A stretch of DNA of 64,000 nt from Haplodiscus bocki (GCA_965655095.1 OZ296650.1:122512001-122576000), one strand, 5' to 3'. Shown: positions 18,944 through 52,777, counted from the first letter of the stretch. The notes: generated from the sequence alone by a model not told the origin. Program-made: numbers and translations.

Positions 18944-19092
18944 CTAAAAAAATGTTGAGTCCAATGCCATCATATGACCTTCTGAATAAAGATATTATCA
19001 TCATGTCCACTCAAAAGCTGGGCAAAAATGGAAATGTGCCAGCGTCTCTTGGAAAATTTGCACTAAAACACTCTTTTAAAAGGACATCTCTG

Positions 19093-19106
19093 GTGTCCAT
19101 GGCAAC
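19093..19106. promoter_or_regulatory. X-box (RFX) like palindrome GTGTCCATGGCAAC
   Basis: 12/14 match to GTTGCCATGGCAAC, about 160 bp upstream of the NSUN2 ATG in a locally more GC-rich stretch. Confidence 0.45.
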
Positions 19107-20222: not shown

Positions 20223-23200
20223 TTAGAATTTACCCACATTTCTGTACTGGAGAACACAAAACCCAAAAACGACATTCGGTAGCATGTTTATCCTTTAGGG
20301 TGCAGAACGTTCGTGAAAACACACAAAAAAATACATCTAAATTGGGCAGCTTCACGACCAACTAAAAACTTTTTCATGAACAGTCGAACAAAGATTTCTT
20401 GCATTCTGCAAAAAAAAATTCTTTTAATTTCCGTGATCGCCTCGATTTTGGCTCTATCTGAAATGATTGTGATCCGGAACATTCGTTTGATACTACTTTC
20501 GTGGGAAATCAAACCACTTTACTTTTTATCTTCAGTGACCTAAAATAAATATATTCGATCTGAAAATACTTCACAACCAAACAAACCCAAAAATTGATAC
20601 CTGCGATGAAAGCAATGAAGCTGGCAGTGTGAGCCATCCTATTTTCCGTTTCCATCAGTCGAGGATCAGGATCAATTTGGGAACGATCGTCAGGTTCCTG
20701 GATTTTGCTGGTGGTACCCAGGATTGTTCACGGGAGTTTTTCCGATTCTCCCAAAATATGTCGGTTCAGAAAAAACTCGTCAAGTTTCGAAGGCGCACCT
20801 GAAATTTTACGTTCGGTTCGACTAAAATCCTGAGGAATTTTTTGGGCCTCTGGTCCTCCTTTTCCTCAGCAACCGGTATATTTTATCCCTCATCCTGAAA
20901 ACATTTGTGTCCCATGAGTTCTCAGCTCTGGGGTGTCCTTAATGGCTTCCGCAGTTCACCTGAGCTCAATTCTGTTTCTCCATGCCGCAGAATGCTCCGT
21001 TTCTGCTCCGTTTTCGAAATGAGCAGCTCTGAAGACTAAATTTTGTTTTATGCTTTTCAGTACCAGCAAAGGGGGATTTATAAAGAATACAGAAAAGATT
21101 ATCTGCATTTCTGAAACAGCTGTTGCGCTCTTCAGTACTTTCGCAGCAGCAGCTGACCTAAACCTCAAAAAAATTGATTTGTGCCTACGCCTGTCCAAGG
21201 GTTCTCTGAATTAACCACCTAAACAGCAGAGAAGAACAAAATTGTGACATAGGTAGCTCTGAAAAGAAGTCAAGATTTTTAAAAGTTGAGATTTTACAAG
21301 TTTCCAGTTTCTTGTTTGAACAGTCAACACCTGGCCAATAGTCCCAAGTTCGATTAAGTTCTACCGTCAGCGCTCGACCTGGGATAAACGAAAAAAAAAT
21401 CCAATTCATAAGATCTGAATTCTCGCGCCTAATACGATGTCTAATTAAATAGAACATATAACAAACAAAAACTTTCGAAGTTTTAGAGTGATATTGCTTG
21501 AACAACAGTTCGATTGTTGGCTGCCAAAATCCGAAAAAAAAATTGCGTGGGGTCAAAAGACATCATGTGCAATAAAGCGCACGCCATTTGATAAAAACCA
21601 GTAATTTCTGAAGTAAAACTAACTAAACACTGAAGCTATGAAAAAAAGTTTTAAACTAGGTGTTAAAAGGGAAATTTGGCATCCGAACGAGCACATGGGG
21701 TGCGAAAAAAAAACGATTTGCGTGGATGAGGCGTAAACAATGATGTGGAAGTGTTGATTGGGGTACGACACAGGAAATCGTGCCACAAAGTTCATAGTTT
21801 GCTGTTTAAAGAAAACTTTAGAAGCACCAACGATGTCGTTGAAGCTCTGAAAAGTGAAGAATTCATCCGACGGATGGAAAGAAAGACCGGAACTCATCAA
21901 AATATTAGCAAGAGACCCAATTCTCGAAACAGAGCCGTTTCGTCTTTTTTCCGATTTAACGTCCCGGAATCGAAACAAGTGTTGGTCAATCTAAGAACAA
22001 CAATATTTAGCACCAGTGCCCACAGAATTGTTCAAAACACAAAAAATGACCCCGAAATTAGGCAGACTGACGATCACTAAAGGTGCAGAAGGAAAACTAA
22101 TTTTTTCGAAAGTTTTCAGCTGCTGAAAGAGCTAAAACTCATCGTGCTGAATTTTCTAAATGCAACGCTTCCGATTCCTTTATACAGTGAACAATCACAC
22201 AATCAAGACCGCTTTACTAATTTCGAAAAATTTCGAAGGTTTGGTGTTACCGGAGTCGCTGGCGCCAACCTTGGCGGCATTTATTTCATCTCGGAAGTAC
22301 TCAATGAAAACTAGCGCCAGCTTCAATGCGTGGCCTCCTCGAAGCCCACCTGACGCCGTGATTGATGCTGAATGGACGATGTCATCAGCTCCATTGAAAA
22401 TGTTGTTAACTCGGGCTGTCTCGTACTCCTGCCAGCGAACTGACTCGTCGACCAGCTACACTAAATATCCAACTTCCAAAACGTGTTCTTCATCCTATGC
22501 AGACTGTGGTCGCATATTCTTCTTCAGTAGACGTTTTTTTGCCATTTGTTGCCGATCTACTGATTGTATTTTTCAGCCAATTTATATATCTTTCGGATGT
22601 CCACATACTTTACCGAATTCAGTATCAACGGTTCAGCTACAAAAACTCGTCCCAAAAGATAAAATTTCAGTGTCGCTGCATCTACATCTATGGCATCGTC
22701 AATTGCAAGCAACTTTGTCTGGATTTCAAAGTTTGCCCAAACAGTTGTTTTGCGTCATCAACAGTGGCAATGTTTGACGTCGAAATCCAAAAATAACATC
22801 TATCCAAGGGTATGAACTTCACTTCATCCTAAGTTGCACATTTTCTCAAAACTTCGCCACCTGTTCAACAACAGTTGTTTCATCCCACTGTTGTGCAATT
22901 TTGAGCCTAATTGTTTTGAATAAGGTGCAAGTTCTCATATGCAAAGAAACCGAAAGGATGAAAAAGTGTTGACACAAATGAAATCACAGATCGGAGAGAG
23001 AACTTGTTGGGCAAATCGTGGACAGCGCCTCAACAAACGTCGAGTGCATACTTCGTCATATTCCAGTGAATGACGTGGGGTGCTGAATTTTTAGTCTCTG
23101 CTCATCATTACAGTCTCTGAAACAGTAAATAGGCTGTAGCCACTATGAACATACCGAGAATCGCCACTCTTTCAGCAAGAATTGTTTCCAAATTATCTCA

Positions 23201-25859
23201 GCAAAGTGTTTGGCTTCCGAGGTCAGTTCAGTGCACGGTTGGACGCTCAATCTTCCTTGAGCACAGGGTAAGAATTTCCGCTGCTAAAGTCGTAATCAAC
23301 CGTTTTTCTCCGAGCTACGGCTTCTCAAAGTCCCGTTGATTTCCCCAGGGTAGCCAGGCCGTGCAAATTTAAAAAATCTCACTGCAGTATTTCTTGCCTC
23401 CTTTGGCTCAAAACACTCCTTTGTTTTAATTGTAGTCTTTTCATTTCACTCCCGACAGATAGGTTCTTCAGGTTGACTCAAAATTGGATCATTTTGATTG
23501 GTGCGTTGGTAACACATTCCTTCCACACAAAACTCAAAATCGTGGTCTGTAGTTCCAGAATCAGAAATTTGATGAAAAAATACTTTTTCAAACAGGCTCA
23601 CACTTCTCTAAATTTCGACAGCTCTGTCTACCACGATAAGCATTTTTGCTAACGCTTGATGTGTTTTTAGTACCTGAAAGAATTCATGTTTTTGAGCTTC
23701 ATTTTGAGGTACCACAATATCTGAGCGCTTGCTCAGGTGGCAAGTAAATGTGTGTCTTTTGAAAATTTCAGTGCCGCATTATATCCGTTTCCCGTCACAA
23801 ATTGTTGAATGCTAATTTCAACAGTATAAATTGTTTCAAAATTTTCACAGGAACCGTTACTTGCAAAATACTCCAATTATTCTTAATGGGTTTTCTCCAG
23901 AGGAAACAGCCTTTCCTTAGTTTCCTTCTTTTTGTCAATTGACTTCCGAGGATTTAATTCCAAATGCTCAAAAGGTCCATCAGTTGTTTCCAGTTTCAAT
24001 TGTTCATCAGTTTGAGCTATTTCTTGTCGAAATTCTTCCACATCCCACTTACGGTTTTTTCGTGACCTGTACACTCCGCTGAATTCGCAATGCTCCACTA
24101 ACAGCAGCTTCAAGATCGTTTGAGACCACCAAATAAAAGAACCCCAATCAAAATTGTCATCACTGTATCTGTTTTGCAGCTTTGTGTTCAGGTTCCACGT
24201 AAGAAGCAACTTTATTAAAACTGGCTGTCGTTGCACATCCAAAAAGTTGAAAAAAACACTAACCATTCGTTTCAATTCCCTAAATTCGATTTGACTTTGA
24301 ACAAAGTCATCCATGTCATGAACCATCTCCTGAAGGCACAAGACACCTGCTTCCGTAGTCCCCCGTACGGAACATCATCTTTTCTTACCCACTCTAGGTC
24401 TCTAGTGTCCTTTTCACTTCCGAAACACATCATTCGTCAATCAGCCTCTGTCCGTTCTTAAAAAATGTTCGCTAATCGTCAACCTATTATTCCGAAGAGA
24501 ATGCAGTACCAAATGCAATATCTCAATGAAAAAACAACCCCGGTATTTGCTTCCTGCAGAGGGTTCACTTGAATTCACTTCAGGTCAGTTGCTGCAGTTG
24601 CGCGTTCAACCAGCTAAAGAAATATGCTAAGATTGATTATTTCGAATCAATTCCAACTTGGTCCATTTTAGATTTACTAGCAAAAGAAGATTCATTTCAA
24701 TACCAAAGCAAACGCTCCCCTCAGTCAATTTTTCTATATAGCTCGAACCGCAATCCCCAAGGCATGCTGAAGCCTCCAAATCTTCGTTCCTACAGCCTCA
24801 AAAAACTACCAATCCCTTATCAGTTTAACTAGTTGAAATAACCAGATAGGCGGACCAAAACTAACGGCCGAAGGAACTCTCAAAAACTTGATTCAAATTT
24901 ATGCTGGTCCCTGTCTTTCTATGTTTTCCAGGATTAAAAAACACAACCGAAATAGCAAATCCAATGATCTTTGAACGGAACTCAAGTCAAATTTTTTTTA
25001 AAATTCAGAATTTGCAAATTCTCAGTTTCTTCTCTGAAGCAATAATACCGCGATAATCATCCAAACTCCAATTCACATCTATTTTTGGCCACCGACTTTG
25101 GAAAACCGAACTTTATGTTTCAAGTCCCAGCCACTTGAATTCTAACGTCCTTTATAATCAGTCCAATTGTCTAATTGAATGTTTTTTTTCAGATACTAAA
25201 CAATTAACACCTATCGAAGTTCAAAGTTTTACTGCGTGAGTGGCATGACAGAAAGAAGAAAAGTCAAACATGTAGCTGAGGCGAGTTAAGATAGGATATA
25301 CACACTCGATTATTGGTTTGGACCACCAGTCATGTTTGAAGTTAGGCTTTATTTCAGATGTACCTTAGGAGAGGGCATGGCTTCGCGTGTGAACTAAGTT
25401 ACTAGCAAAATTGGCACAATGTGTTAAAAGAGACGGTCCGAGTCAATGTTTTCAGATAACTAATACTTTAAAAAAGAGCCGAGTCAGAGGTTTGTCCAAA
25501 ACAACAGCCGTATACATCATTGCTGAGGTTTTGAGTTGAAGAGCCAAACCAATGTCAAAACATGGGTTTTTTTAACGATGAGATTTTGTCCAGTTTCCCA
25601 CTGCCACGTCCGGCTATTTCATGACGTACGCAGATATTTCATAGCCAATATGGATTCTTAATGACAGAAGTAGTAGTCTTTTGGCGTAGGCAGACCCTTT
25701 AGGAGAAAAATGGATAGCCAATGCGACTGAGAATATTGCTTTAAATTGGTGCTATGTAAAAAGATTGATTCAGTTTTTACTTGAAACGATTTGCGATTAC
25801 GAAACTGGAAGAAAGTGTTGTTTGGCCTGCGGGTTTCTAATAATGGAGAAGAAACTGCT

Positions 25860-26245
25860 ATTCGCAATATACTGTAAATGAAGGCATATTAAGATCGTGA
25901 ACTCCAATCAGTTCTTGTTGTCAGAACAGTAAAGGATGAACAGCGGAAAGTATCGTAAAAAGATCGCAACTACTTCGATGGCACTGTAGTGGTAATGGAT
26001 CCGTCTGGTTGTAGTGCAGATTGAACAAACTGTAAAATTTGAGTCCGAGTAACTCTGCAAGAAAAAACTTTTGATCAGCCTCTGCAAATATTATTGAATG
26101 CTCGCCCTGCATAATGCAAGTTTTTGTACTTGTAATGGCAAAAAAATCCTTTGGAACGTAATCTGAAAGCAATGAACAAAAATATTCTTACTTGAGTAGA
26201 GTAGAGAAAATCGGTTGACTTGATGCTGTGGAGTGTTTTTAGCCC
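25860..26245 (-). pseudogene. Adenain-like cysteine protease (Maverick PRO)
   Basis: SDYVP..FAI...MQGEHSI..A...FLAELLG...PLQCHRSSC keeps the His, Gln and Cys positions of the GxHW...DSLG...Q...CG consensus. Confidence 0.8.
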
Positions 26246-27560
26246 TGTGGTCGATTTTTTCAAACAAAGTTAACTTTGTCAACTGCAAAACTAAACACAC
26301 GTTGTCCCAATGCAATGAGTTCAGCAATATGATCTAGAAGAACCGTAATGTGTATCTCCAGTTTCAGTGGCTCCCAGTTTTTTATGGAGGCATTTTTTTA
26401 CTAAAATCTTGCATGAAATTAAATCAAAGACTAGTGCAAAAAGCTCTTGGAAAATTTCAATGATAACTTAGGAGAAATCATCCTGAAAGTTCATTGCTTC
26501 AATGTGATAAGTTACAAGCAGGAATCATCAGCAGCATCAAAACCTAGCATTGGTTCCCCTTCTCTAAATTTTCCACATTGTCTGAGATCGAATCTTTAAT
26601 CCCGGAAAAGTTTTCCAATAGTACGTTCCGTTGAATGCCAATTTATTCTTATTGCAATAGCAGTTCGACAAACTGAGGCACTGCTGAAATTTTCTTTCGA
26701 ATTAACTGATTTTGTCTGGCTTGAATGATTGAAACTTTTGCTAGACTCTGAAATTAGTTGTATTCAACAGGAGTGAAAGAAAGCACGTTTAGTTTTTCGA
26801 AGTGATACTCATCTTTGAGAACATTTCGACGTTTTTAAGACGAACCATCATCAAATCTAAGACACACGTTGGGCTGGCCGTTAATCATGGAAAAACTAGG
26901 TCTGGGTTTGATTGTTCGTTGTTTGATTCCCATATTTGAATAGAGAATTACAGAAATGGAGAAAAAGTTAACTCCCAGTATAGGATATAACCTGTAGCCA
27001 TCGGGTCTACAAAGAAAAAAATTTGTCCGCGTAAAAAAACGGTACCGGCTGTTCTCATCGGCAGAATCTTTTTGATCATTGAACTTGCCGGGTAGGTCTC
27101 CGTTACACTCGAGAACGTCTCTGTCTAATATGTTTGAAGTGTAAGTTATGTGGGCAAAGATGCGCAACGGTTTGTAAGTTTGCTAATTGTTGTTGTACGC
27201 CTGAACATTGGACAAAACTGATGGCAAAAAGTTGTTAGCAGAAGTAGAAAAAGGAATGGGAGTTTTTCTCTACAAGTCGTATATCACTGCGGCTTCTTTT
27301 GTTCAAATTTTATGCTGTGTTTTAACGTACTTGATTCTGTTAATTTCTCATTGACTCTTGAACTTTTTCTGTTCCAGAGAGAAGGAAAATTGTCTCAGAT
27401 TAACATGAAAGCTCCGATGCGTTTGATTTTCAAAATGGTTCCACTTTTCATCAAGTGAGGTAGTTAGATGTGTTTTTTGCGTGTGGAATGAAAAAATTAT
27501 GTTAAGTAATGGGGTTTTTTGACCAGACATATCCTTAAATCATCAAAAGGGCTGATACCG
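26245..27560 (-). pseudogene. Major capsid protein (double jelly-roll, Maverick MCP/hexon)
   Basis: Fragments HLTTSLDE..FENQTHR..VNLRQ, FFTR...RPDGYRLY.ILGVNFFS..LYSNM...RPSFSMI, RTAIAI, AMNFQDD and ALVFDL match Maverick MCP consensus, including the C-terminal xFDLT region. Confidence 0.82.
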
Positions 27561-27599
27561 GATTTTTGGTCAAAATGATCAACAAGATTTAATTGTAAA

Positions 27600-27918
27600 A
27601 CAGCTCAATACGCGACGGACTCTACGATAAACTTTGCCTGAATATTTTCTTTTCTTGCTACCACTTACCGGCCGTTTTTTGTTGGTTTGCCTTCCCACTG
27701 ACTTGGCGGCCGTCTTAATTTCTTTTACCAGTCTCAACCTCCGCCATTTTTTGTACGGCAAACTGTAACGAAGAAACACCGAAACATTTTGCTGCTGGGA
27801 TAACGTTTTGTGAGTCTGGGTAGAACTGCGGTCTTCCAAAAAACTTGGGCATGTGCACCAACTTCCCTTCCATTCTATCAACTATCTGCAAAAACTCCAA
27901 ATGTCTTGAAGCAACCAT
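27600..27918 (-). pseudogene. Basic core/pVII-pX-like small protein
   Basis: MVASR..., VIPAAKCFG..LQFAV..MAEV..G and IKTAAKSVGRQT..GSKKRK. Basic and amphipathic, located between the minor and major capsid genes. Confidence 0.6.
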
Positions 27919-27949
27919 ATTCTGGCGTCCCGTTTGACGGATTTTATTG

Positions 27950-28745
27950 TTGGAAGCTATCCTAAACACCAAAACAAGATGAATGAAAGCAACAGATACA
28001 AAGTGTTTTTTGTGAGTGCTCGTGTTTCTCAACTCTATGCTATCGAATTTTACAAAAATTTTGGGCATCGATTTGATTTGTAGGTTACTAAGCGTTTGCT
28101 AGTTCCATTAGTGTCAGCATAAAATTTTGTCTGAGTTTTAGCTTTGAAATACAAAAAAGCAACGCAGCAAATGAGCGTTTCTGTCGCCAAGAAATCAATA
28201 CTCGAAAAATTCGGCGTTTATCATCATCGAATGTAGGAAGACAAAATCGTAATCGAAATCTCGTTTGTGATTAGGTTTTCCAATGAACGTCACTCCAAAC
28301 TCGGTGAAAACATTGTCTGCAAAAAAATCTGACTTTCGTACAACCGAATGGAAAACCTCATCCAACACTTGCATGTTGTACCTCAACATTTGGCCGACCT
28401 CGAGGCAGTTTACCTGAGATGCAATCTATGGTGTGACTGTGATCCGTTCGAATAACCGTTTTCATGACTTCCAAAAAATCAAAAAATGGATGGGTAGACA
28501 TTGACTTACAGACAAAAAACGTTTGACGCGTTGCCATGTTTTGTATCAAAAAACTTGACATTCCCGTCTCGAAATTTCCGACTGACTGATTTGTGGAAAC
28601 TAGAATTTTAAAGGCAACTGAAACCTTCCATAGCCCCTCCCGTTTCGGTTGCTCCGGCAAAAAGATTAAAAGAGAGACAAAATTATTGTCTGGCAAGAAT
28701 TTTGCTGATGTCTGGAAGACAAAATCTATATGAAACAGGTTTTGT
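27950..28745 (-). pseudogene. Minor capsid protein (penton, single jelly-roll)
   Basis: N-terminal SAKFLPDNNFVSLLIFLPEQPKREGLWKVSV resembles S..LFPDNTLSSFTNFLP..L.LEG.WEVA. C-terminal FDSIELRNTS..KHFVSV..HLVLVFR. Confidence 0.8.
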
Positions 28746-28749
28746 TGAA

Positions 28750-29595
28750 GGACTGTGATAATTTCTTTTATAGTTTTTGAAAAGTGTGTTCTCATCCTCC
28801 CAACTCCATAATGTGTTCGTTGGTGGTTTTCCGGAAGCAATCACAACATGTTCAGATACTTTGTGTGTGAATTGTGGCATGTAATTATACCTGAAGAAAA
28901 AGCTATATTTGAAGTTTCAAAGGTAGTTTTACGTTATCATAGTCGTTTGTTGTACAGAATGGAAAAAATGTCGGAAACTTTTGGCATTCTGTAGTAACAA
29001 GTTTATCGAAATTGTTCTTCTAGAAATTTGGACTGTAACTAGTTGAGACTATTTGTAATTATACTTGTACAATTAGACTTTCGGACGCGGTAAATAATTC
29101 TCAAAGATTGTATTGTACGTTCGGCAAGTCCAGCCTAACTCCCACTGATGGTAAAAAAGTTTGTTTTCAATAAGTTTTGAAAAAAAAGTTTCTCTGATTC
29201 CCAAGCCCCTTTTGTACCACGGCCATCCCTTAATTAATCAGCGCTATTGTTTCACAATCAAAAGTAAAAAAAATCAAACAGTTTCTTTAGTAGAACTTAG
29301 GTTTCCAATCCGCTGGCATCTAAACTTCTACCAAACAAGTTTTGATAGACTAGATAAAAGTTTACACCGTTATTTTAATTTGCCATTGTATTAAGGTATG
29401 CCAAAATGCAATTTTTTATCTCTCGCATTTACGTGCGGCTAAAGTAATTACTGTTTAGGAAGTCGTTGAATGGATATTTAACCTCATCTTTAATACTTGT
29501 CGACCCCTGGCGTTCACCAAAACGTGCACAAAACCATTGCCAGCACCACCTTGTGTATGAAGTTCTTGCAGCACCAGATTTTCATATTTCAAAAG
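28750..29595 (-). pseudogene. Retroviral-type (c-int) integrase with C-terminal domain
   Basis: Fragments LHTQGGAG, a WYKRG/DKG region, AERTIQSL, and PQFTHKV..VVIASGKPPTNT..EDE, which resembles the GY.P.FT.EVF.I....PPTY...DE tail of Maverick integrases. Confidence 0.75.
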
Positions 29596-29599
29596 GGAC

Positions 29600-30320
29600 A
29601 CAAACTTCTCTCCTTTTGGAATTGTCACTTTGCTTCAGAACCAGAAATGGAGATATATCAGCATTGTCAAGTAAGTAACGTAAATTTCAGAAATTTCTGC
29701 GGTTCAACGAGCCAGTTTTTGAGCAAAGGTTGACAGTGAAACTTTAGTTTCGATACCAAAAAAATTTATTGACTGTCAGATTGAAAGTACAAGGACAAGG
29801 ACAGTTTCTGAAACCTAAAATGTCAGTTTTGCTAGAAAACAATGTTTTTTTTTGCCTTTTCAGCGAACCAATTTGGTACCTGGATTTTTGTTGAGCTTGA
29901 TTTTATGATATTTCTGTATCGAAAATGATTGCTTAGTTAAGTTTTTGTTGTACAAAACAGCAGGGAAAATAGCAAATTGCTCAAGATCAAGACAAATGAT
30001 AAACAACAGCAGGAGTAACCAGCGCGAAGCTTTTATAGGAAGTCAAAAGGCCATTCTTTTGCTCATTTTAGAGACAATAACTGGGCTTTCTATTGAAACT
30101 TTGCCACGTGGCGTGTTTCTATGCTTTGCAGCTTTCCCCTTGGCAGATTCTTTAAGGACTCACATAGAAACCAGAAAAACACATTTAGACACGACGCGAG
30201 TGAACAACTTTAAACATTCTGGCAAAACTTTTGTAACAGTGGGAGATATAGACAATTTGTGTGTTCATCCTTCGAAGACTTTAAAAGCATTACTTTTCGA
30301 GGACAAAAAATTTGGCAGAC
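29600..30320 (-). pseudogene. Two conserved Maverick ORFs of unknown function between ATPase and integrase
   Basis: Degenerate coding-like sequence (VSMCESLKNLPRG-type and LDNADISPFLVL..K fragments) at the position of the uncharacterised Maverick genes. Confidence 0.4.
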
Positions 30321-30895
30321 GTAATGCATTGTTTCTGTAGTAACGTTGTTCTTTGTCTGTTTATGGAAATACTACAGTCAAAAATGGACATAGGAAAAAC
30401 ACTTTGCGTCTCCAGCAGATCAGTTGCTTTGGTGCGATACATTACAGTCTATGTAGCATAGTGACTTGCGTGAGAAGGGAAAAAAATATCTAATTTGTAC
30501 CTCATCGTCGCAATCTAAATTGCTTGGCGGGGGCAAGATGCAATTGATGTCTTCAGTACTTAGTCTGCAATGTCCTCCAGCGGTAGTTATTACAAATAAA
30601 GCTATTGTATTGAAGGTCTCCTGAAAAGGTTCGTCAAAGTTTGGAAAGTAAATGTACAGTTGTATTCCAAAAAATCAAAGGTTTCAAGGTTTAGGCCTTG
30701 AAAAACTACGAACTTTGCAATTTTTTTGCGTAGCATCGTACAGTGGCAGTGAGTGTTGGAATAAAAAGTGACCATTCTCAAACTTTGCTTCCATTCCAAT
30801 GTTTCGCTATTTGCAAACAAAAAGCCATTTTGACAACTCAGACACTCCCACCGATTAAAAAAGTCACGATTTTTTGTAGAACTCACCTTGTTCAC
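30320..30895 (-). pseudogene. A32/FtsK-like packaging ATPase
   Basis: MNKVSSTKNRDFF... N-terminus with an eroded Walker A, TTAGGH (AGRH-like), FSHASH..D and a C-terminal TDKEQRY remnant. Position fits Maverick gene order. Confidence 0.65.
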
Positions 30896-31329
30896 AGTAT
30901 TTGCGGGAATAGAGTGTATACAGCGGCACTACACAGAACTTCCACTCAAAATCTTTGTTCAACTCAAGTTTTCGAAAAAACACCTCAGCAAAATCTACAC
31001 AAACTTTTCAACTATTTGCCAAAGGTTTGGGACAATAGTCAATCAATCATCTGGAGCACGTTAGTCACAAACAGACTACAATTTTGTTTCTTGATTGTTG
31101 TTGTTCAAGCCAACTTTGCCTAAAATGGAAATATCTCCTTTCTCAGTTAAGTAGCATAAATGTTCAGTTTCCCAATACAAATACTTGAAAAAAACAATCA
31201 CTTTCAAAATGGCAAAACGTAGCTACAGACAATATATTTGGAAAATCAAAATAAACATTAAGTGCTACCCAGTCCAGTTACCAAACTTTTCTGCTTCGCG
31301 CTTGGCAAAGTGGAGTGTAGTATTTCATT

Positions 31330-31690
31330 GGATTGGGTAACTGGAGCAATTCAAAGGTTCCTCAACTGCTTTAGAATCTACAAAGTCATGAAGTTTGGGC
31401 AACAAGGACCACCCAAAATTTCAACGGCTTCATCGATTAAAGTGCTAAGAATCTTAAACCTTGCTGTTTTTTTGTGAAGTATTAAGGCTTTTGCTCCAGG
31501 AAGAGTGCTTCAGTGCGAAGTATATTTCATACTCCCAGAGCTCAACGCATTGCCCAGCAAATTTCTTTTTCAACAAAGGTCTGCTTCACGTGCTTGAACA
31601 TTTTGGAAGACAAAATCAGTCTTCTTCAACCTTCCCTTCCACTAAAACTCATCATGCCTTCTTCATACTTTTATCTCCAAGGTTAAAATA
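31330..31690 (-). pseudogene. Possible DEDD-like exonuclease / conserved Maverick ORF
   Basis: Fragments VLVEGKV..F.LPK, KQTF and ILSTLIDEAVEILGGPCCP resemble the IKEL...F.PP...NLE..GCP family. Confidence 0.4.
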
Positions 31691-32604
31691 TAAAACAAAG
31701 TGGGAGTACCGCTTCAAAAATTGACAGGAATGAGGAAGGAAGGTCGTAAAAGTTTGCGATAAAAACAAGAGAGTAGTGCAGGCACCTCACCAAGCAATCA
31801 ATAGTTTCGCCCCTCGTCCAGTCTTGTGACAGTAGCCAATTCTCTTTGTAGTATGTGATCGTACTGCTCCAGCAGCATACAGTAGTTTTGTGCAAAGCCA
31901 AAATAAATTGGCGCTGCAAGAAAGAAACACACCAAGGAAAGATTCCACGATATACAAAAACTTGTTTTCAGTCAGTTAAAAAGTTTCCATTGCTTCAACA
32001 GTAAAATGCACTCAGAAAAAAATCTTTGCGAACATTAATGCTTTCAAGTGACAAATTCAGTCTTCAAGAGGATTGCAAAATAATCACTTGACAGAAAACA
32101 TCTCTTCTCGATGAATTTTGCCTTTCTACGAAATGTTGTTTCATCCAGTAAGTTGGACCGTACGACAAAAAACGTCAAAGCAGCTGAAGAAATGAACTCA
32201 CACAGCTACGAACATTTGAATGAAATTATGTCAATTTTAGATCAACTTCTTTATTTTTAAGGCAAAATTACTTCAGTAACGCTAAAGGACAATGTTCAAC
32301 TTGTCAGCGTCAATCAATATTTCGCCCAGTACTTGCTAATGTTCATTCAACACTAAACTTATCTTTGGGATCAAGGTTGTCCTCCTTTGGAGTTGTTGCA
32401 TGTCAAGCAAGGGCGGCCAAAAGAACCTAAGAGAAGTTTTCGCAGTTCTTACCCTAACAATTGGAAGTCCCAAAATTGATTCTTGCTTGAAAATTACCTT
32501 TTTATATCGACCATTGTTCCAACTCGTCCTGAATTGCATACTAGCAGAACTGATATAGAGCGTATTGTTGCACTTGCCGTCACAAGATATTACCAATAGA
32601 AAGA

Positions 32605-33200
32605 TTAGCCAAATTTTTTGTAAACAAAACTCATAACATCGATTACATAGAAGAATTCATCAATTGTATGACTCACAGTGACAATTTTTTCCACCTTTTT
32701 CTGTATTTTTCGGAGAACTTTTTGGAAGTGAGCATATAAACTCTCTCGCGTTTCCTTTTTGTACTTCACCAAAGTCACGCATGTGTTCCCGTTGGGATCG
32801 TCGATCACTTATAAAGAGTTCGAGTTGTTCCTCATTTTCCGTGAAGAATGTTTTTTGCAAAACTAGGAAATATGTGTTGCTCCAACTTTCTCCTGCAACG
32901 GCCAGCTGTGTCCTCAGTTGAATGAATTGATTGTTCTCTAATTCTTGCCTTGTAAATTTCTGATGAGGGGCAAATAAGTCTGTGGCCATCTTTTTGAAAA
33001 CTTTGAAAGAAACATCCACATAGTTGGGGCAATTCTGAACCAAGAAATCCGTCCAACTCTATCCTGACTCTTTTCAAACATCCATAAAGTTGGTGTAAGT
33101 TAGCTTGTCAAAGTAGGCAGAAGTGTTATAAGCGATGTGTTCTGATCGCTGAGACAGCACATTGGTGGCTGAGAGAAGTGAACTTTTCGAGGAACAAAGA
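32605..33200 (-). pseudogene. Putative PC4/PUR-like ssDNA-binding protein with two repeats
   Basis: NYVDVSFKVFKK...QKFTRQELENNQFIQLRTQL and TCVTLVKYK..SLYAHF..RK..EK..TVSHTIDEFFYVIDVM: each is beta-strands followed by a helix. Confidence 0.45.
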
Positions 33201-33839
33201 TTTCGAAATGTTTGTGGTGCTACAAATTTTTCCCATCCTACTTTTCTGAAAAATTTATTTAGCCATTGTCACGTCATATTTTTGTAGCGGAATTTTTTTC
33301 TCCTTCGGTCATTGGCACAACAGATTTCCGAAAATGGATAAGAGTTCTTTTTCTGGACAACTTGTTCAAAAACGAAAAAATTAATGTTTCTCAGATTCGT
33401 TTAATCAGAAAACAACTCCTTGACCACATAGTTCCTGTTATGCTGCATGCAATTCCCAGCTTTCGCTCAAATTTCTCGGAAAATGTTCTTTTCAATTTTG
33501 CCACATGCAAAAAACACATTGTGAGTGAGCAGTGCAGCATCGTCCACCACGACGACAAGACGTTCTTTCCCACCAATTGCAGATATCTTTTCATAGTTCG
33601 AAGAGCCAATGAAGTGAAGCAACAGAATTTGGACGCAATCTAATTCATCTACCAGAACGCGGACTGCCTCTATGCACACTTCATGTCTCAGTTGAAAGTC
33701 AAAAATGTTGCTGAGAGCAGACGAGCGTATGTTAGTGTCCAGAGTACAATGTATTTCACCCAAACAAACAAAGCCGTGGACTGAATGCTCAGCATAGCAA
33801 AAAAAACCTCGAGCAGGAAACTGCAAAAACCACGTGTTT

Positions 33840-34493
33840 AAATCACTCTCAGGCGTTAAATCATTGCAAACTGTTGGACCAGTGTTTGGAAATTGAGCAA
33901 AACTAGTTCCAGTGACAAAAAATTCAACTGATTTTGAAAAACGCTGGGAATCTTTTCCTAGATGCTTATGGTGGTTCGACAAGCGTTTTAATTGGTTTAG
34001 AAAAATCTATAAAAAAATTCATCTGTTTCAGTCCACGAGCAAACAAAGTTCTCTTTTGGTAGTGCAAAATCGATTGCCAATGTAGCCAGCTAGAATGCAA
34101 TTAACATACAAAAAGCAATAAAGAAGAGAAAACCACCCCACCAACGAATAAATCACCACTTGCCGCACTCCTGAGGAAAAACGTTTACCTACACTCTTTC
34201 TATAGATCTGCTAACGAGACTGGGGTGAATATCGTCTCGCCCTCAGTTCAAGTAACGCCTAGACCCTGTTTACCCATCAATGTCTTTCAGTTGATCTTAT
34301 TTTTCTTGTTGCCCCCCCAAATTGGTGATCGCTATGCATGAATTTACTAAAATTATAAGCACTTCGTTGATTTGAGAGTGATGTAATTCGAAACTTCATG
34401 TTAACTTACAAAAAGTTTTTCTCCGGATACTTTTGTCTAGAGTCGCTTTGAGAAGTCTCTCGTCAAAACGGATTTTAGTCCAGATTGATAAGG
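33840..34493 (+). repeat. Segment A, duplicated at 37727-38380
   Basis: 654-bp direct repeat, offset 3887 bp, about 4 differences counted by eye. Confidence 0.95.
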
Positions 34494-36893
34494 GCACTCT
34501 GCAAATTGGATTGATAAGGGCACTCTGTAAAGGGGACTTTACAAATTTCGTCATTTTTTGATCCTAAACATCTATTTTCACGTTTTGACATGACATTCTA
34601 ATCAAAAGTTTGCAACCAAAAAAAAGTTTAGATTCCTTTTTCTCCATAAAGAGGTAAACTTTTGCATTTTTTGTACATTTGGAAAAAACATGATTGTGTT
34701 AGAGCTCTATTTGAGGAAATTGAATTTTAAATCCAAAGTTTTACTTTTTGTTAGTCTCTGGATCAAAGTTTTTACAACGTTTCAGATTTTGCAATTGAAA
34801 ACTTTGTACTTTTTTGTTTTATATTCGAACCTGTTTCCACCACATTTGGAGTTCAAACTTTTCTTTCTCTAACACCGTGATCAATTTCAGGTAACAACTT
34901 CATCCTTGAAAAAGAAACAGAATTTGTCGATCAAACAGTATTTTCTGTACTTCCTTTCTTTTCGGAATTTCTGTTTGCTGTGTTGTCTCATATTACCTCT
35001 GCATGAACTTGTTTTATGCAATAACTAGCTGCCACTGGTGGGTGTAAAAAAAGATACGAGAGTTGTTTTCGTCTCACTTTCCGGATAGTTTGTTTAAATG
35101 ATTATAATTAACGGAAAAGTTTCAAAAAATGGTAATAAAAAACACAAACATCATAAAAAACATACCTACAGACAAACTCCTCTACAGAAATGTTGGCACA
35201 TTTCAACTCTATTGCCAGGAAAGCAATATCTAAGCGAACCGAAAAACCTATTGACTGATCCGATGACTGGGTTTAATTATGAAGTTTTTTCAATATCTTG
35301 CTCGTAGGCAATCAGAACAAGGATTCTTTCCACTGGAACCATGGCAAACTCATAGAAGGTCGAAGTGAAAATTGGTTTCTCCTGGCACAACCGAAAAATT
35401 CTCTGCAAGTTCAAGTCATTATTTTCCGAGTGAAATTCAATGCCTTGCAGATCAAACAACTTTTACCCGCTTGTGTTCATCTCCTGTCCTCCTACTCTTG
35501 AAACAACTTCGATCCGCAACTGAACAGTACCTTATTCGTTGGGAGTTACTAGAAGTCGCGCTGGATGATTGCCATAAACGTTTCGTCTCTGCGTTTGTAG
35601 CGATCTCCATGCAACGGTTTTTTTTCGCAAGCTGATTGCGATGTTTTGGACAGCACTTTCGACTTTCAGAATCACTGAACTTGGAAAAACGTCGAAAATC
35701 CGTCTTGATACTGTCTTTGAGGACCGCCAAAACCATAATTTTCTTACTCTAGAATACGTTTAGAAAAAACGAGACCAGAAGCAATAATTGGTTGAATGTT
35801 GAAACAGGATTGAACACTCTTTTATTCCAAACTGTGGGTTAATTTCAATCTTCTGTGGTACCAGATGAATTGTGGCCATTTTTTGAGGAAGTTTTGAAAA
35901 TACTGGGTTCAGTTTTTACAGATCGTCGACTGGACTTGTGTTTGTTGGTGAAAAAGTTCCCGCTCCACCAAAGGCGCAAATTGTTTCTTCTCGTTTCTTT
36001 TATAAAAGCACAAGACAGTGAGTGTTAAACTTTTGTTTTCCATAGCCTAAACTTGAACTGAAAATAAAAGTCGTGAAGAGCACACATTTTTGGTTGACCC
36101 GATAGTTTTTCCGGTTTTTGGAACCTTCTCCACATTTTTGGTAGGTGGCGTGTCTCTTTTTGGTAGCGTTTTCTTATATTGAAGTTTGTGAGGGCACTGT
36201 TTCAATACATGTCCATCCTTCACAAAAAAGCACAAGAAAAAGCTTGTTGTTTAATCTAACAGAAATATTTCAGCGTTGTTCGTAGCGTCGACGTCGTAAA
36301 TCTTTTCCCTCAATCCACACCTGTAGAGACTGGAGAAGCTATTTTTGTACAAACTGGATTTTTTGTGACGATTCAATTTACCAATTTCTGTAAGAACCGG
36401 ATGATCACCGTAAAGCTCGAGTTTTTCGGTACAAGAGGCAGAATTTGGACTTGTTCGAAACTACAGGATAGACGTTCTTGTGTCTCTGCATATTCTTTAA
36501 GGTTTTTCCGACGGTGAACAAGTTAATCATCGTTTTCTACTCGTAAGTTTAGAAAAATGTTATCCGAAAGAATCCAATTTAAACGTTTTGATATGTCGAC
36601 TCCTTCTTGGGGAATAAAAAACATTGTTTTGTCTTTAAGTTGCAAGAATGAAGCAATTAACTTGCAAAATTACTTTATGTAGAACCGTTGTTTCGTCAAT
36701 TTTTTCAGTGGTGAGGCTGTGAAAAAATGCAAAGCGTGTTGTTAGAAAAGTTTTCTACGCTATCTCAATAGACATCTTTCCTAATTGAAAAAAGTTTGGA
36801 CGAGCCAGAACTTAGCCTTTCATTCACATTTACTGTTTCTTTATATAGCAATTAATATAAAATCAGAGACTCGTTGGTACAGTAATAAACACG

Positions 36894-37724
36894 TAAAACA
36901 CTCTTTCCTAATCATCAGTTTTTAGTGGCAAAGCTTTTCTTCTTCACAATCAAATCTTAACATCTCTCGCTTGACAGATTATTTTGAAACTGTTGTTCAG
37001 TGTGTAAAAACGTTTACCAAATTAATTAGGTTGGTTAAATTGCTGTGTGGCAAGAGCTTGCGTCAATAGTTTTAAGAGTATGTGATCGTAAGATTTTAAC
37101 TACTAAAGTAGGTGTTCAGTTCCTACTCAAGAATAATAATTTTTCTCCGCAGGTCACTCTGATTGCCAGTTGGGACAAAATTAGGCTCGATAATAGTGAA
37201 CAAAATAATTGTCTCACAAAAGTTGTCCCTATTAGGGGATTTTTTTGTATTTGAGTGATTTCCTCAGGCATTATCTCTCTTTATGAGACGTAGTTCAATC
37301 TACTTGGAAAATAACTTCAGATAACCTATCTTTACCAGGAGAATTGCCCCAACAGAACGGTTTTCTGAGAGATTCTGTCGGCTCAGGAGTGGAACAATGT
37401 CCACTTGAATGACTTTCGGAGATGAAATTTTTTATGGAGAATTGTCTATAACTATTGACCGAGAACAACTTCACGTTGTTTGTGTTAAAATCTCAATTGC
37501 ACATCATTGTTGGAGTAAAATGGAATGTATTTCGCTTTCTGAGATGCCAATATGATTCACAGCTTTTTTTCCCTTAGAACCTTACATTCAACGGTTTTTC
37601 TTTTAAAAGTCTTTCCCTATGTGGTTTCAGATGGAACGAATATTTTGTTGTATTGGCGATAAAAAATAAAAAATTGTTCGTAAAAGAATTCACACAATAA
37701 ACTGAATCCAACAAATGAAATGGA
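36894..37724 (+). repeat. Segment B, duplicated at 38419-39249
   Basis: 831-bp direct repeat, offset 1525 bp (ORFs 37045 and 38570 are near-identical), roughly 19 differences counted by eye. Confidence 0.95.
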
Positions 37725-39182
37725 TGAAATCACTCTCAGGCGTTAAATCATTGCAAACTGTTGGATCAGTGTTTGGAAATTGAGCAAAACTAGTTCCAGT
37801 GACAAAAAATTCAACTGATTTTGAAAAACGCTGGGAATCTTTTCCTAGATGCTTATGGTGGTTCGACAAGCGTTTTAATTGGTTTAGAAAAATCTATAAA
37901 AAAATTCATCTGTTTCAGTCCACGAGCAAACAAAGTTCTCTTTTGGTAGTGCAAAATCGATTGCCAATGTAGCCAGCTAGAATGCAATTAACATACAAAA
38001 AGCAATAAAGAAGAGAAAACCACCCCACCAACGAATAAATCACCACTTGCCGCACTCCTGAGGAAAAACGTTTACCTACACTCTTTCTATAGATCTGCTA
38101 ACGAGACTGGGGTGAATATCGTCTCGCCCTCAGTTCAAGTAACGCCTAGACCCTGTTTACCCATCAATGTCTTTCAGTTGATCTTATTTTTCTTGTTGCC
38201 CCCCCAAATTGGTGATCGCTATGCATGAATTTACTAAAATTATAAGCACTTCGTTGATTTGAGAGTGATGTAATTCGAACCTTCATGTTAACTTACAAAA
38301 AGTTTTTCTCCGGATAGTTTTGTCTAGAGTCGCTTTGAGAAGTCTCTCATCAAAACGGATTTTAGTCCAGATTGATAAGGACTAAAATAAAACACTCTTT
38401 AAGGATAAAAAAAAAGGATAAAACACTCTTTCCTAATCATCAGTTTTTAGTGGCAACGCTTTTCTTCTTCACAATCAAACCTTAACATCTCTCGCTTGAC
38501 AGATTATTTTGAAACTGTTATTCAGTGTGTAAAAACGTTTACCAAATTAATTAGGTTGGTTATATTGCTGTGTGGCAAGAGCTTGCGTCAATAGTTTTAA
38601 GAGTATGTGATCGTAAGATTTTAACTACCAAAGTAGGTGTTCAGTTCCTACTCAAGAATAATAATTTTTCTCCGCAGGTCACTCTGGTTGCCAGCTGTGA
38701 CAAAATTAAGCTCGATAATAGTGAACAAAATAATTGTCTCACAAAAGTTGTCCCTATTAGGGGTTTTTTTTGTATTTGAGTGATTTTCTCAGGCATTATC
38801 TCTCTTTATGAGACGTAGTTCAATCTACTTGGAAAATAACTTCAGATAACCTATCTTTACAAGGAGAATTGCCCCAACAGAACGGTTTTCTGAGAGATTC
38901 TGTCGGCTCAGGAGTGGAACAATGTCCACTTGAATGACTTTCGGAGATGAAATGTTTTATGGAGAATTGTCTATAACTATTGACCGAGAACATCTTCACG
39001 TTGTTTGTGTTAAAATCTCAATTGCCCATCATTGTTGGAGTAAAATGGAATGTATTTCGTTTTCTGAGATGCCAATATGATTCACAGCTTTTTTTCCCTT
39101 AGAACCTTACATTCAACGGTTTTTCTTTTAAGAGTCTTTCCCTATGTGGTTTCAGATGGAATGAATATTTTGTTGTATTGGC

Positions 39183-39620
39183 GATAGAAAATAAAAAATT
39201 GTTCGTAAAAGAATTCACACAATAAACTGAATCCAACAAATGAAATGGAATAACTTAACGTAGTTTAAGCTGAAGTTTGACTTGTCTATCATCAATGGTT
39301 CTTTTTTCGGGGATGCTTACTTCCTGAGTTGCAACTCTGATTGACTGTTCCTTTTACGTTCATGTAAAACAGTCTTTCGTTTTATGGTACAATAATGCAG
39401 GGATTTACTATTGTACCATAAAACCAAAAACTGTTTCACATGAACGTAAAAGGAACAGTCAATCAGAATTGCAACTCAGGAAGTGAGCATCCCCGAAAAA
39501 AGAACCAAGGATGATAGACAAGTCAAACTTCAGCATTAACTACGTTAAGTTATTCCATTTCACTTGTTGGATTCAACTTATTGTGTGAAATTTTTTACGA
39601 ACAATTTTTTATCTTTTATC
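39183..39620. repeat. Long fold-back palindrome (~210-bp arms, 14-nt loop at 39395-39408)
   Basis: ...aaacagtctttcgttttatggtacaata-atgcagggatttac-tattgtaccataaaaccaaaaactgttt...; pairing continues outward with scattered mismatches. Confidence 0.95.
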
Positions 39621-39879
39621 TTTTGTTTTATGATCAACTGAATCAGTCTTCCTTTCATAGATTTTCCGTAAAGGGTACATTGTAATGAGTACCACTAGCT
39701 ACTAAAACTTCGCCACATTTCCTAAAGTTGCGCCAACCTTCATCTTTACTTCAGACTGTTCTGGTATATTACTATCCAAGAAAATCCTTACCCACTCCGG
39801 AGAGAAAAAAATACTTGTGATATTTATATCTCCCGAGCTCTGAGAAACCGTATTATACAGCAGCAAAAGTTACACTCCG

Positions 39880-42870
39880 TCGCAAACCTTTACTGTAATA
39901 ATTAACCCTACTTTTCAACAAAGTCACAAGTTGACTTGAATTATCACTTTGCCAAGAAGCATGCTGAAGCAACCTCTAGAGCAATCCACAAAGCTAAAAA
40001 TAGAGGGAAGTAGCTTTCCGGTCTAATTTCACTAGAGGTAAGGAACACTACCTAAAATGTTGAGAATTTCTGTCTCAATGGAGAGCTGGAAGCCTGTAAT
40101 TTCTTTCTCACATGTTTTGAGACGGAAAATGGAGGAAACAGAAACTTCAATCTGGAAAGATTACACTGGAAGCAAACTTTCCGTCGGAAGATTTAAATCT
40201 TGGTTTTGAAAGCATCAACTGTGTACCTCAGCTGATCGCAGAGTTCACATTAGGACTGATACTTTTTGAAAACGTGAGCTGTTGTCCTGACAACACAAAC
40301 GAAAACAGAATACAGTTGGAGCGATCTAGTTCTTTAGTTACGTAAAGAAAATCTGACGAAAATCATGAATCTGCCAAGGAACATCAACTTCACTGACGCG
40401 TGCAAATGCTAACCAGCCGACACAGAATTAAATTTTTGCAAGCCCACTAATGTGACACTTAATGGTACTTTACTGAGAACTGTTCCCTTTGGGACTAAAA
40501 ACGCAGTACTGCCAGAGCCACGATTGAAAAAGTCCTTCTGTCACTTATTCAGAAACGACAAAAGCACCTCAAAGCCTGTAAACGATACTTCATGTCTTTT
40601 GTCAGCTCTAGTACTGTTTTTGCATGGAAATAAGGGAACCGAGGTGGAACCTTTTAAAAATGTAAATCTTTTTTCTGCAATAGATTAGTGGAGCTAACCC
40701 GCGAGCTTGCAAGAGGCCTTCTCGAAAGATAATGCAACAGTTAAAGACATTTTACTAGTAAACTTTTCCTGTTCAGACCAGGCATTGTGGACGGGGCATT
40801 GATTGGTGGGCTTGCGAGGAAAAGTTTAGAAGCTTTCTACTGCTGTACAACTGTTACGTTATAATGGTCGTCATTACAAAATCCCGAGTGTTAACATGCT
40901 ACTTGAATCTCACTGATGTCGCTCAAAAGATCAATTTATCATAACATCTGCAAACTTGGAACGAAAAGACGACATGTCATGGGAATATTAAACACATTCT
41001 GCAAAAGAACCTGAATCAACTACGGGAAACATCGTCTGATGGACTGGATTTTTTGGGGATTCTCTCCACGGACAATCAAAAGCTCTTCAGGAAGCAGATA
41101 AAAATAGACCACGACTCAATTTGTGGGAAAGAAGACGGCTTTTTTGATACCAATATCACCACTTGGATCGGTGATCATTATCTGAAGCAAATCCTGCAAC
41201 CTGAGAGGAGTCCCATTTTTTTTGGTGCATCTCCAATCTGATGGACTGGGTTGAATCATTTATCTATGCTTTTCCTTAGTTAGGTACACAAGGTGAAAAT
41301 CAAATGCAATTGGTTTTTTTTTGGAAATTGAAACCATTGTGGAAGTAACATCGAATCATTTTTTCTCCATTCTTGACCAACGTTGTCTCAAAGACCAATT
41401 CATGGTTTTTGGACACAAGTGGATCGCACAAGATAACCAAGGTGCATAAACGGAGCTCTTACAAGTGCAGAAGAATCAACTTATTGATTTAAAGCATCTT
41501 TCGGAAAGCTTTCGTTTCAAGTTTTTTGTCTTTTCTCATTTTGATAAAAAAACTATATCTTGTCACTATAAGTACAGGACAAACAGATTGTAACAAAGGT
41601 GATCAAGAAGGCAAATCACTTTTTCTCGTTAAAGTTTGTAGGTATTGAATTGCTAGTTACATTGAATCCTTTCTGAGACACAACGAGCCCTGATTCATTT
41701 TTAACAGCCTTCCTCCATAGGGATGGTTTGATGATCCAGAAACGCTCCACAAAACACAAATGCTTCCTAGGGAAGTAATTTTGAAACAGACTGCCCGTCA
41801 ATATCGCCATTGAAATATAGGCTGCAGAATTCCGAAGCTCCTTAGACGGAGGCATGACAACCAACGAACCACTACCCAAGTTGAAATTGAGTCAGTCGAC
41901 TCCAACTGGACAAGAAGGTTACCAGTACTTTTCAATGGTTTCGGAACAAGAGAACATGTACACCTGTAAAGACTTCATATAGTCATATAACAAAAAAAAT
42001 TCCAAGCCAACGTGGGAAACTATGCAAAAGTGGCCCATTTTTTAAAAAAATGAAGAATTGACATTTGAAAGTCTGGATGCATTCTGTGGAATGTGACAAA
42101 AAAATTTCCTTCACAATTCTACAATCGCAAAAATTTATCCATTTGGAGGAAGTGACAAACAAGCGTTGAAAACAGCATGTGAAAACAAAGTTAGTGGTCG
42201 CTGCATTGCTCTCACGAAGTAAATTGTTTCAAACAAGATCGTTAGTTGCGACTCATTAAACAAATGCAAACCTACTGTTCAAAATGATGCTAGTCAAGAT
42301 TTTCCAAACTCTATGTGTCAAACGGTAGACTATATACAAGGTGAAATCTCGAGCCTAAATGGCAATTTTGAACGACCGCCCCCTCCCCCTCAAAAAAACA
42401 GGAACTTTAAAATTTGATATTGTTTCACTTTCAGAGAGTCAGATCACAAGGAGTCAGATCACAGGTTTTAATGGAGAGATTCTACACAACCGGCACGGAA
42501 AGAAAGGGTGGTGTTTTTAGCGCCGAAGGTTTTTTCGTTCTGTATGTTTGTGTTTGAGACTGTGTGTTAATAAAATCTCATTTGTTCTGATCAGGAAACA
42601 TGTCTTTCCTTCTTTGTCAGGACCTTCAATGAGGCCTAAAAAAGAGCTGGACCTACCACGGAAACAATCAATGGAAAAAAAGGCTAAAGCGGCGTTGAGA
42701 TTTACAAATGTCATTGCTGGAAATTGTACTAGACGAACAATATTGTTCAGCAGCATCTCCACGAAGCCCTGTTTCGCAAAAAAGCTCCCAGAGAAAAACG
42801 ATTTCCGAAAAAAAATCGAAAATAGGAGACTTTTGGTCATGTACAAAGTGATAAAGGGAAGCAACAGGAT
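39880..42870 (+). pseudogene. Protein-primed family B DNA polymerase (pPolB), C-terminally truncated
   Basis: FSTKSQVDLNYHFAKKH (half C2H2 finger), VPFGTKNAVLPEP...NDTSCLLSAL, YN...PTWETMQK, VSGRCIALTK, motif A NDASQDFPNSMCQ at ~42283, and PSLS...KKELD. Motifs B and C are not seen after ~42870. Confidence 0.82.
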
Positions 42871-43319
42871 CAGTTAGGATTCAGACGCAATGAACAAAAA
42901 ATTTGTGGATAGTCCTCTTCAGGTAACAGGTTGTCGAAAAAAACCCTGTTGAAAAACTTGAACCTTACACTGTTGGGGAAAACGTCCAAAACACCCAGAA
43001 ATACAAAACTTATCCCTCTCCTTGGCGTCAGGGCATCACAGATCGAAGAGTTGCGGCAGAACCATTTTTGAAGTTATTCTGCTGGTTTTGGTTCGTGATG
43101 AACTGGTTAGCAAAATTTGGAAAAAAAACATCAAAAATTCATATTTACAACACGGAGGCGAAGCCACACTTCGCAACATTTGTATCAAATGAACACTAAT
43201 GAGCCAATCGAATATTGAAAATTCCTCTTCCAAGCCGCCACGGTACTAGGAAAACTAAAACTTATTGTTTAAAAAGAAGTAAATTAAAGTCAGCTGATTC
43301 GTATATATAACCATACAAA

Positions 43320-52649: not shown

Positions 52650-52777
52650 ACTTATTTGATTTGATTGGATGCCTTGAGTGACGGGAGTCGTCACTCTGAG
52701 CATTAAACGGAGAGTCCTCTAACATCGACAGCTGCAATTTTTTCACGAAAAAAAAATCGAAAATTAAAAAACAATCT

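Follow-up and report, generated by a model that had tools for sequence, protein, structure and literature searches.

A decayed Maverick of a high-copy family beside a BEL/Pao retrotransposon remnant in Haplodiscus bocki

The locus

The stretch of DNA analysed here, referred to below as the window, comprises 64,000 nucleotides of the Haplodiscus bocki genome (positions 122512001-122576000 of contig OZ296650.1, assembly GCA_965655095.1; genome size 1.5 Gb). It holds a genuine Maverick, which extends from about 25.2 to 42.85 kb, and directly to its left an unrelated element, a decayed BEL/Pao long terminal repeat (LTR) retrotransposon (21.15-25.24 kb). Very probably, the Maverick copy is a dead, right-truncated member of a high-copy family of 18-kb elements that has been decaying since a likely old insertion into a BEL/Pao LTR. 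The initial annotation, made from the sequence alone, had placed one full adintovirus-like Maverick at 21600..42900. A Maverick is present in that interval, but it starts at ~25.2 kb, and both the last ~390 codons of its polymerase (pPolB) and its right terminal inverted repeat (TIR) are missing.

When the proteins of sister copies were searched against the window, 16 of the 17 sister genes were found, in the same order and on the same strand: the protease (PRO), likely major capsid protein (MCP), likely core protein, likely minor capsid protein (mCP), integrase (INT), a 134-aa open reading frame (ORF), the packaging ATPase, accessory genes A to I and then, on the opposite strand, pPolB (Table 1). 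Gene H alone went undetected in this search, and the weakest detections were those of G (E 0.006) and C (E 0.002); the same proteins gave a best E of 0.18 against the reversed window. The arrangement first described, a minus-strand block of morphogenesis genes and integrase diverging from pPolB, is thus borne out.

The copy is heavily decayed. The region has no long ORFs, those in Maverick frames reaching 160 aa at most, and amino-acid identity to the long-ORF sisters is 40% over 2752 codons. There are 2.3 stops per 100 codons; stops occur in all 16 detected genes and frame changes in 11 of them. Jukes-Cantor distances between window and sister are 0.53, 0.44 and 0.86 at codon positions 1, 2 and 3, and the ratio of third-position to first- and second-position distance is 1.8, compared with 3.4-4.2 between two long-ORF sisters. 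If these distances are the sum of lineage divergence and position-blind decay, post-insertion decay would be roughly 0.35 substitutions per site, a figure made rough by the alignment filter. The window pPolB stops near codon 1072 of 1460 and so lacks motifs B and C; sister motifs A, B and C lie at 886, 1190 and 1290, and a 1446-aa sister ORF has all three. Neither the pPolB tail nor the right TIR was found in the window, in 20 kb to its right or in 10 kb to its left, and the copy has no readable target-site duplication (TSD).

Table 1. Features of the Maverick copy and the adjoining BEL/Pao remnant (window coordinates)
Feature	Position	Strand	Evidence
BEL/Pao 3' LTR remnant	21150..21957	-	60-69% matches with sister BEL/Pao LTRs, which are 1.25 kb long
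BEL/Pao pol remnants, internally deleted	22213..23165	-	integrase C-terminus and DUF5641 22213-22798 (E 0.0097); reverse transcriptase (RT) piece 22864-23165
BEL/Pao internal remnant, likely gag/protease (from position)	23434..23881	-	63% over 451 bp to sister locus L072, collinear with RT piece
BEL/Pao 5' LTR	24852..25242	-	62-66% to sister LTRs, the match ending at 25242
Left TIR remnant, decayed, weak; terminus approximate	25240..25870	.	local scores 20-26 against 6/6 sister left ends; shuffled maxima 16-19
PRO, adenain-like protease, broken	25876..26199	-	49% to sister, E 2e-23
Likely MCP, broken	26254..27560	-	39% to 451-aa sister ORF, E 2e-47
Small basic protein, likely core (putative role), broken	27592..27918	-	E 6e-5 to sister
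Likely mCP, broken	27949..28750	-	E 6e-25 to sister (match 28018-28750)
rve integrase (INT), broken	28761..29703	-	E 9e-25 to sister (match 28764-29703); sister PF00665 E 2.3e-9
Conserved 134-aa ORF, broken	29585..30018	-	E 1e-9 to sister
A32-like packaging ATPase, broken	30049..30992	-	E 9e-9 to sister (match 30049-30949)
Gene A, broken; likely resembles a DEDD-type 3'-5' nuclease	31259..31566	-	E 2e-8
Gene B, broken; motifs resembling PLA2 seen by eye	31717..32123	-	E 3e-9
Gene C, broken	32168..32542	-	E 0.002 to one sister, 6e-5 to another
Gene D, broken; type I domain (Pur-alpha/PC4-like) predicted	32614..33184	-	E 6e-13
Gene E, broken	33344..33956	+	E 2e-23
Central non-coding region	33960..35300	.	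short 71-78% matches at 34608-34845 to sister ~31-bp repeat arrays
Gene F, acidic C-terminal half, broken	35298..35804	-	E 1e-19
Gene G, Cys-rich, remnant	35955..36095	-	E 0.006
Gene I, broken	36290..36844	-	E 3e-5; 58-69% DNA matches to sisters
Recent local duplication	37727..39249	+	self-comparison: 37727-38380 from 33840-34493 (654 bp, 99.4%), 38419-39249 from 36894-37724 (831 bp, 97.7%)
212-bp inverted repeat, I-pPolB intergenic region	39183..39620	.	arms 92% complementary; 19-bp matches of both arms to sister intergenic region
pPolB, N-terminal C2H2 fingers and VSR domain, broken	39735..42852	+	E 3e-76 to sister, 27-33% identical

Sister copies and the anatomy of the family

DNA searches with four sub-regions of the window each returned at least 40 matches of 62-83% in the same genome, and in a protein search with 26835-27179 (minus strand) all 150 scored candidates, of 5584 first-look candidates, matched, many in frames of 467-468 codons. 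Six sister loci were compared, four picked for long MCP frames and two for matching several parts of the window. TIRs are present in five of the six and 6-bp TSDs in four; in these four the TIRs are 600-780 bp long, are 95-99.7% identical and start AGTAGTAG, and the elements measure 17.9-18.3 kb. One of the other two has TIRs and no clear TSD, and one sits within a larger inverted repeat. The sisters therefore carry the long TIRs starting AG, the length of 15-20 kb and the 6-bp TSD that are Maverick/Polinton traits. These termini, which the initial annotation had proposed to locate, were thus recovered from the sisters, and in the window only as a weak left TIR, which also gives short sister matches (E 1e-5 to 1e-4).

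Are the hallmark genes readable, as first claimed? Remnants do lie at the places and on the strands proposed, but the profile searches named only some of them. The sister PRO matches Peptidase_C5 at E 0.014 and has His, Asp, Gln and Cys motifs; its PDB profile search was blank. The sister ATPase carries a Walker A motif and matches Pox_A32 at E 1.1e-4; its 22.1 bits fall slightly short of the 22.8 cut-off. Of the double jelly-roll major and single jelly-roll minor capsid proteins expected of a Maverick, MCP and mCP are the likely counterparts, judged by size and position and in part by assumption, no profile having confirmed capsid identity. The sister mCP has a weak match to a PHROG minor head protein (E 0.02), and an IMG/VR scan with MCP gave no pattern match. 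The sister pPolB matches Vsr (TIGR00632, E 8e-4) and gives no match to PF03175, the profile that a neighbouring second Maverick family does match (E 7.8e-9). A direct Pfam scan of window frames read through stops, covering 21.5-32.3 kb, returned no hallmark family, only DUF5641 and a chance match to DUF7318.

All nine accessory genes and the virion genes are under purifying selection in the sisters. In the two sister pairs tested, dN/dS is 0.04-0.46 for genes A-I, 0.02 and 0.08 for MCP, and 0.10 and 0.07 for mCP; MCP, mCP, PRO and ATPase together span 0.02-0.36. In the first pair gene F and pPolB include nested partial copies and the 134-aa ORF has a dS of 0, and in the second the pPolB dS is saturated. 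Among the genes of one pair dS spans 0.18 to 1.6, a spread which suggests that lineages have recombined. That the likely capsid gene is under such strong constraint suggests a particle stage on the way to new insertions.

Some further features of the sister loci are of note. In the central non-coding part of the element, flanked by the convergent genes E and F, two arrays of ~31-bp repeats face each other (L057:6430-7000). At L150, about five partial segments of a Maverick, covering genes A-D, stand in tandem. Diverged Maverick lineages occur at L135, L090 and L146 (ATPase 34-41% and MCP 35% identical), and in L135 and L090 a gene B homolog is kept near the ATPase gene.

The accessory block

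The region from 31 to 39 kb is a genuine nine-gene accessory block of the family, to which a recent local duplication has added 1.5 kb. It had been described as coding sequence not explained by canonical Maverick genes; this holds, since eight of the nine sister accessory genes were detected there in order. The proposed comparison with sister copies had a divided outcome, in that 31-39 kb is shared with them but the left 4 kb is a separate retrotransposon. The span from ATPase to pPolB is 8.8 kb in the window and 7.1 kb in the sisters; the duplication and the 212-bp inverted repeat account for the excess, part of which is cancelled by a loss of sequence in the gene H region. No high-identity copy of this inverted repeat was found elsewhere.

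Searches of the sister accessory proteins against Pfam, PHROG, NCBIfam and PDB profiles gave nothing significant. A D-x-E motif is present in gene A, and its Atlas scores (0.94-0.96 to clusters without names that are rich in arthropods, 0.86 to a 3'-5' exoribonuclease cluster) point to a likely DEDD-type nuclease-like protein, for which Pfam and PDB were blank. An alignment of gene B shows, by eye, GxG and His-Asp motifs that would correspond to the calcium loop and dyad of a parvovirus-type PLA2; searches of Pfam and PDB were blank. The Cys-rich genes G and H, which lie upstream of pPolB, are paralogs with 34% identity in the sisters, and an LxCxE motif was found in neither. The model of gene E has a pLDDT of 34 and gene E has no Atlas match of 0.9; a HUH-like His motif seen in it by eye is unsupported.

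For gene D a fold is predicted. The model of a sister gene D (pLDDT 73.5) consists of two beta4-alpha repeats in the order beta4-alpha-linker-beta4-alpha, and aligns with Pur-alpha repeats I-II with Z 13.2 and an rmsd of 3.3 over 144 residues (Foldseek E 3.7e-5), which predicts a Pur-alpha/PC4 fold. In a viral library it also matches MOSUB of an insect adintovirus (E 0.011), a protein that we assume to be a PC4/Sub1 homolog. Are other accessory genes of the same kind? Gene I and the D repeats are not significantly similar (23% identity over 107 columns, P 0.28; best half-domain profile E 0.022, to one copy of I). A similarity between D and C was discarded, the match having come from read-through tails.

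Homolog searches returned 2494, 3501 and 3351 proteins for E, D and B, respectively; among the matches listed (120 each) all are nameless ENA proteins with 74-96% identity, so that distant relatives lie out of view. A representative search with gene D gave 1226 matches, all without names, a metagenome scan with the same gene gave two short contigs, and there was no named member among up to 40 in each of 10 clusters. In a literature search outside which most subscription papers fell, we found no account of this gene content or of a Pur-alpha fold in Mavericks. The suggestion that the lineage carries undescribed gene families therefore narrows to the unassigned genes C, E, F and I: D resembles the named MOSUB, A has arthropod look-alike clusters, and the PLA2-like and Cys-rich kinds are known from adintoviruses.

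The left 4 kb

The sequence from 21.6 to 25.8 kb had been taken for Maverick accessory genes. It is not: 21.15-25.24 kb is the BEL/Pao element and 25.24-25.87 kb the weak left-TIR remnant. Sister BEL/Pao ORFs, 34-54% identical to the pol remnants, carry DUF5641, Peptidase_A17, RVT_1 and DUF1759 between 1.25-kb LTRs. The two LTRs in the window are 61% identical over 352 bp, or 0.27 per LTR (score 16, shuffled maximum 8). At 23.9-24.8 kb there is no match among the loci compared, and this part is given to the retrotransposon by position.

LTR homology ceases at 25239-25242 in two sisters, and the Maverick TIR start predicted from the TIR internal repeat at 25286 coincides with this point. This coincidence makes it likely that the Maverick inserted into an older BEL/Pao LTR.

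Two further observations concern BEL/Pao sequence. Window 21212-22697 has a 90% identical copy on its own contig, ~140 kb further downstream (L022/L064) and beside an RT-like ORF, and a BEL/Pao piece forms a 1.7-kb tandem array at L027-L030.

Share of the genome

Eighty evenly spaced 10-kb stretches were sampled on contigs C1-C12. Twelve of them match the family, seven over more than half their length, for a mean of 8.4% (bootstrap 3.6-13.9%). The family share thus corresponds to something like 100 Mb, the combined length of several thousand elements. The second Maverick family mentioned above is A+T-rich and adjoins sister copies (L047:1-6430, L050:1-3050, L053:1-2000); it has the PF03175-type polymerase and many TAAATG. 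Its partial references, which may include other repeats, match 13 of the 80 stretches and 3.0% of the DNA.

Transcription signals

The motif CATTT, which resembles a polymerase II initiator, precedes 12 of the 17 gene starts at a distance of up to 70 bases (background 12%); dinucleotide shuffles gave 4.5, and none of 1000 reached 12. Poxvirus-type late starts were considered and rejected for this family: they occur at none of the 17 starts, and TAAATG is found 15 times against 19.2 in shuffled sequence. The neighbouring second family has 17 TAAATG in 6.4 kb.

Other sequences in the window

Just to the right of the truncated pPolB lie two high-copy repeats (43140-43570 and 43910-44280; 3225 first-look candidates, 70-78% identity). 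A tandem array of 4.75-kb units, 95-100% identical, in ~3.1 copies and with an RT-like remnant, occupies 52141-64000 and L166:1-3035. To the left are exons of a host RsmB/NSUN-type RNA methyltransferase (17728-19200, minus strand; PF01189, E 2e-6) and a piece of a non-LTR RT-like ORF that overlaps an inverted repeat of 114 bp (14881-15497).

Proposed life cycle and alternative readings

A life cycle can be sketched for the family. The rve integrase would insert the linear genome, giving the 6-bp TSD, and host RNA polymerase II would likely transcribe the genes, 12 of whose 17 starts follow the initiator-like CATTT. Starting at the TIRs, pPolB would replicate the genome through protein-primed strand displacement, while the gene D protein, with its predicted Pur-alpha/PC4 fold, would coat the displaced single strand or aid transcription. 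Packaging of DNA would fall to the ATPase, and PRO would mature the capsid that takes it up. We further propose, tentatively and as a doubtful rather than a probable reading, that one capsid-encoding lineage has long been re-invading the germline, leaving copies that range from near-identical to neutral fossils and account for ~8% of the genome in thousands of copies, a share that would equal or exceed the highest on record for an animal, that the nine-gene block has been kept throughout, and that the orphan genes C, D, F and I may form an array of Pur/PC4-fold single-strand binders, the missing single-strand binding protein of Maverick replication.

Several results weigh against the reading given here of the locus and its family. 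The profile support for PRO is a match of only E 0.014, and searches of Pfam, PHROG, NCBIfam and PDB recovered neither MCP nor mCP, even from intact sisters; PF03175 does not recognise the family's pPolB. The interval on the genome share is wide and comes from contigs C1-C12 only. CATTT was picked after looking, and 20 of 1000 shuffles contain some 5-mer that attains 12 of the 17 starts. As to nesting, the remaining ~870 bp of the LTR was not found beyond the Maverick (window, 20 kb right, 10 kb left); the left TIR signal is weak, and because the right end of the Maverick is lost a TSD cannot prove the insertion; and the Maverick decay of ~0.35 is not below the LTR figure of 0.27, contrary to strict nesting.

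These last points bear on the possibility that the Maverick only lies next to the BEL/Pao element and is not nested in it, their order of arrival being reversed or unrelated and a later deletion having joined the two. The missing LTR remainder would fit, and the two decay estimates leave the events unordered, but the LTR homology ends in two sisters at the predicted TIR start; simple adjacency seems to us a real though minority prospect. Rather unlikely is that the family spreads solely as an intracellular self-copying transposon, particle-free, its virion-like genes kept for another purpose or hitch-hiking. Thousands of copies fit amplification within the germline, and the capsid fold found no confirmation in the profile and PDB searches; the dN/dS values of MCP, mCP, PRO and ATPase, however, need selection on each gene during spread.

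We give very little credence to the view that a single Maverick of unusual size, carrying 12 kb of undescribed accessory genes, fills all of 21.6-42.9 kb. It is right that 31-39 kb is a real accessory block, and an ORF at 23886-24374 has no match in the compared loci or Pfam; sister elements, however, end ~0.6-0.9 kb beyond PRO, 21.15-25.24 kb holds two LTR remnants and BEL/Pao pol pieces (DUF5641/RT), and 1.5 of the 8 kb is local duplication. Least credible of all is that the window copy was domesticated, or belongs to a distinct diverged lineage under selection: third positions are still more diverged than first and second, but all 16 detected genes contain stops and 11 of them frame changes, no ORF in a Maverick frame exceeds 160 aa, and pPolB lacks motifs B and C. 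A dead, right-truncated copy, likely inserted into an older LTR, remains our reading of the locus.

If the estimate is right, about one twelfth of an animal genome consists of one Maverick family with a continuous age series of copies. Such a series allows selection to be measured gene by gene, invasion waves to be dated, and the question to be asked whether Mavericks form particles in animals. Replication by strand displacement can be expected to require a protein that binds single strands, and gene D, with its predicted Pur-alpha fold, is a candidate for that role.

Comparison with known systems

The window fossil is ordinary, one of thousands; the family is novel within the Maverick/Beta-adintovirus kind, and is notable for its genome share and for the conserved genes C, E, F and I. 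Maverick-type elements at several percent of an animal genome are reported for the coral Cladopsammia gracilis, in which polintoviruses make up 7.8% (PMC11131425), a share close to the one estimated here, and for the acoel Praesagittifera naikaiensis, in which Mavericks make up 4.5% (PMC6451197). Here, unlike in those accounts, one family alone contributes ~8.4% and a further family ~3%, figures that come from sampling and not from full annotation.

The BEL/Pao sisters share with BEL/Pao elements the TG...CA LTRs, DUF1759, RT, Peptidase_A17, rve and DUF5641; the window copy differs in being internally deleted and decayed.

The Maverick family shares with Beta adintoviruses and Mavericks-Polintons, as described in PMC8502044, a PolB, an rve integrase, an adenain, a packaging ATPase, a virion module and inverted terminal repeats. 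Beta adintoviruses are there defined by a PolB outside pfam03175, which the family's pPolB fits in a comparison made by profile, without a tree. The same article names MOSUB, MAEL, PLA2-like and Cys-rich 'Oncoid' genes upstream of PolB, and its supplement may name more. Relative to the adintoviruses of that description, the family has a 7.1-kb nine-gene block between ATPase and pPolB and a copy number in the thousands, no GasderminX was recognised in it, and its G and H lack LxCxE. The VSR domain inside pPolB is likewise seen in VSR-bearing pPolB2 Polintons from molluscs and from one marine nematode (10.1101/2023.08.22.554363), a likeness of domain, drawn without a tree; the N-terminal C2H2 fingers set the family's pPolB apart from the polymerases described there. 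The gene D model, finally, resembles Pur-alpha repeats I-II and the type I PC4-like fold (PDB 3k44, 8cht; PMC7549692) in having two beta4-alpha repeats in one chain, whereas gene D is viral and only 11-14% identical to Pur-alpha, and its binding of single-stranded DNA or RNA is a prediction.

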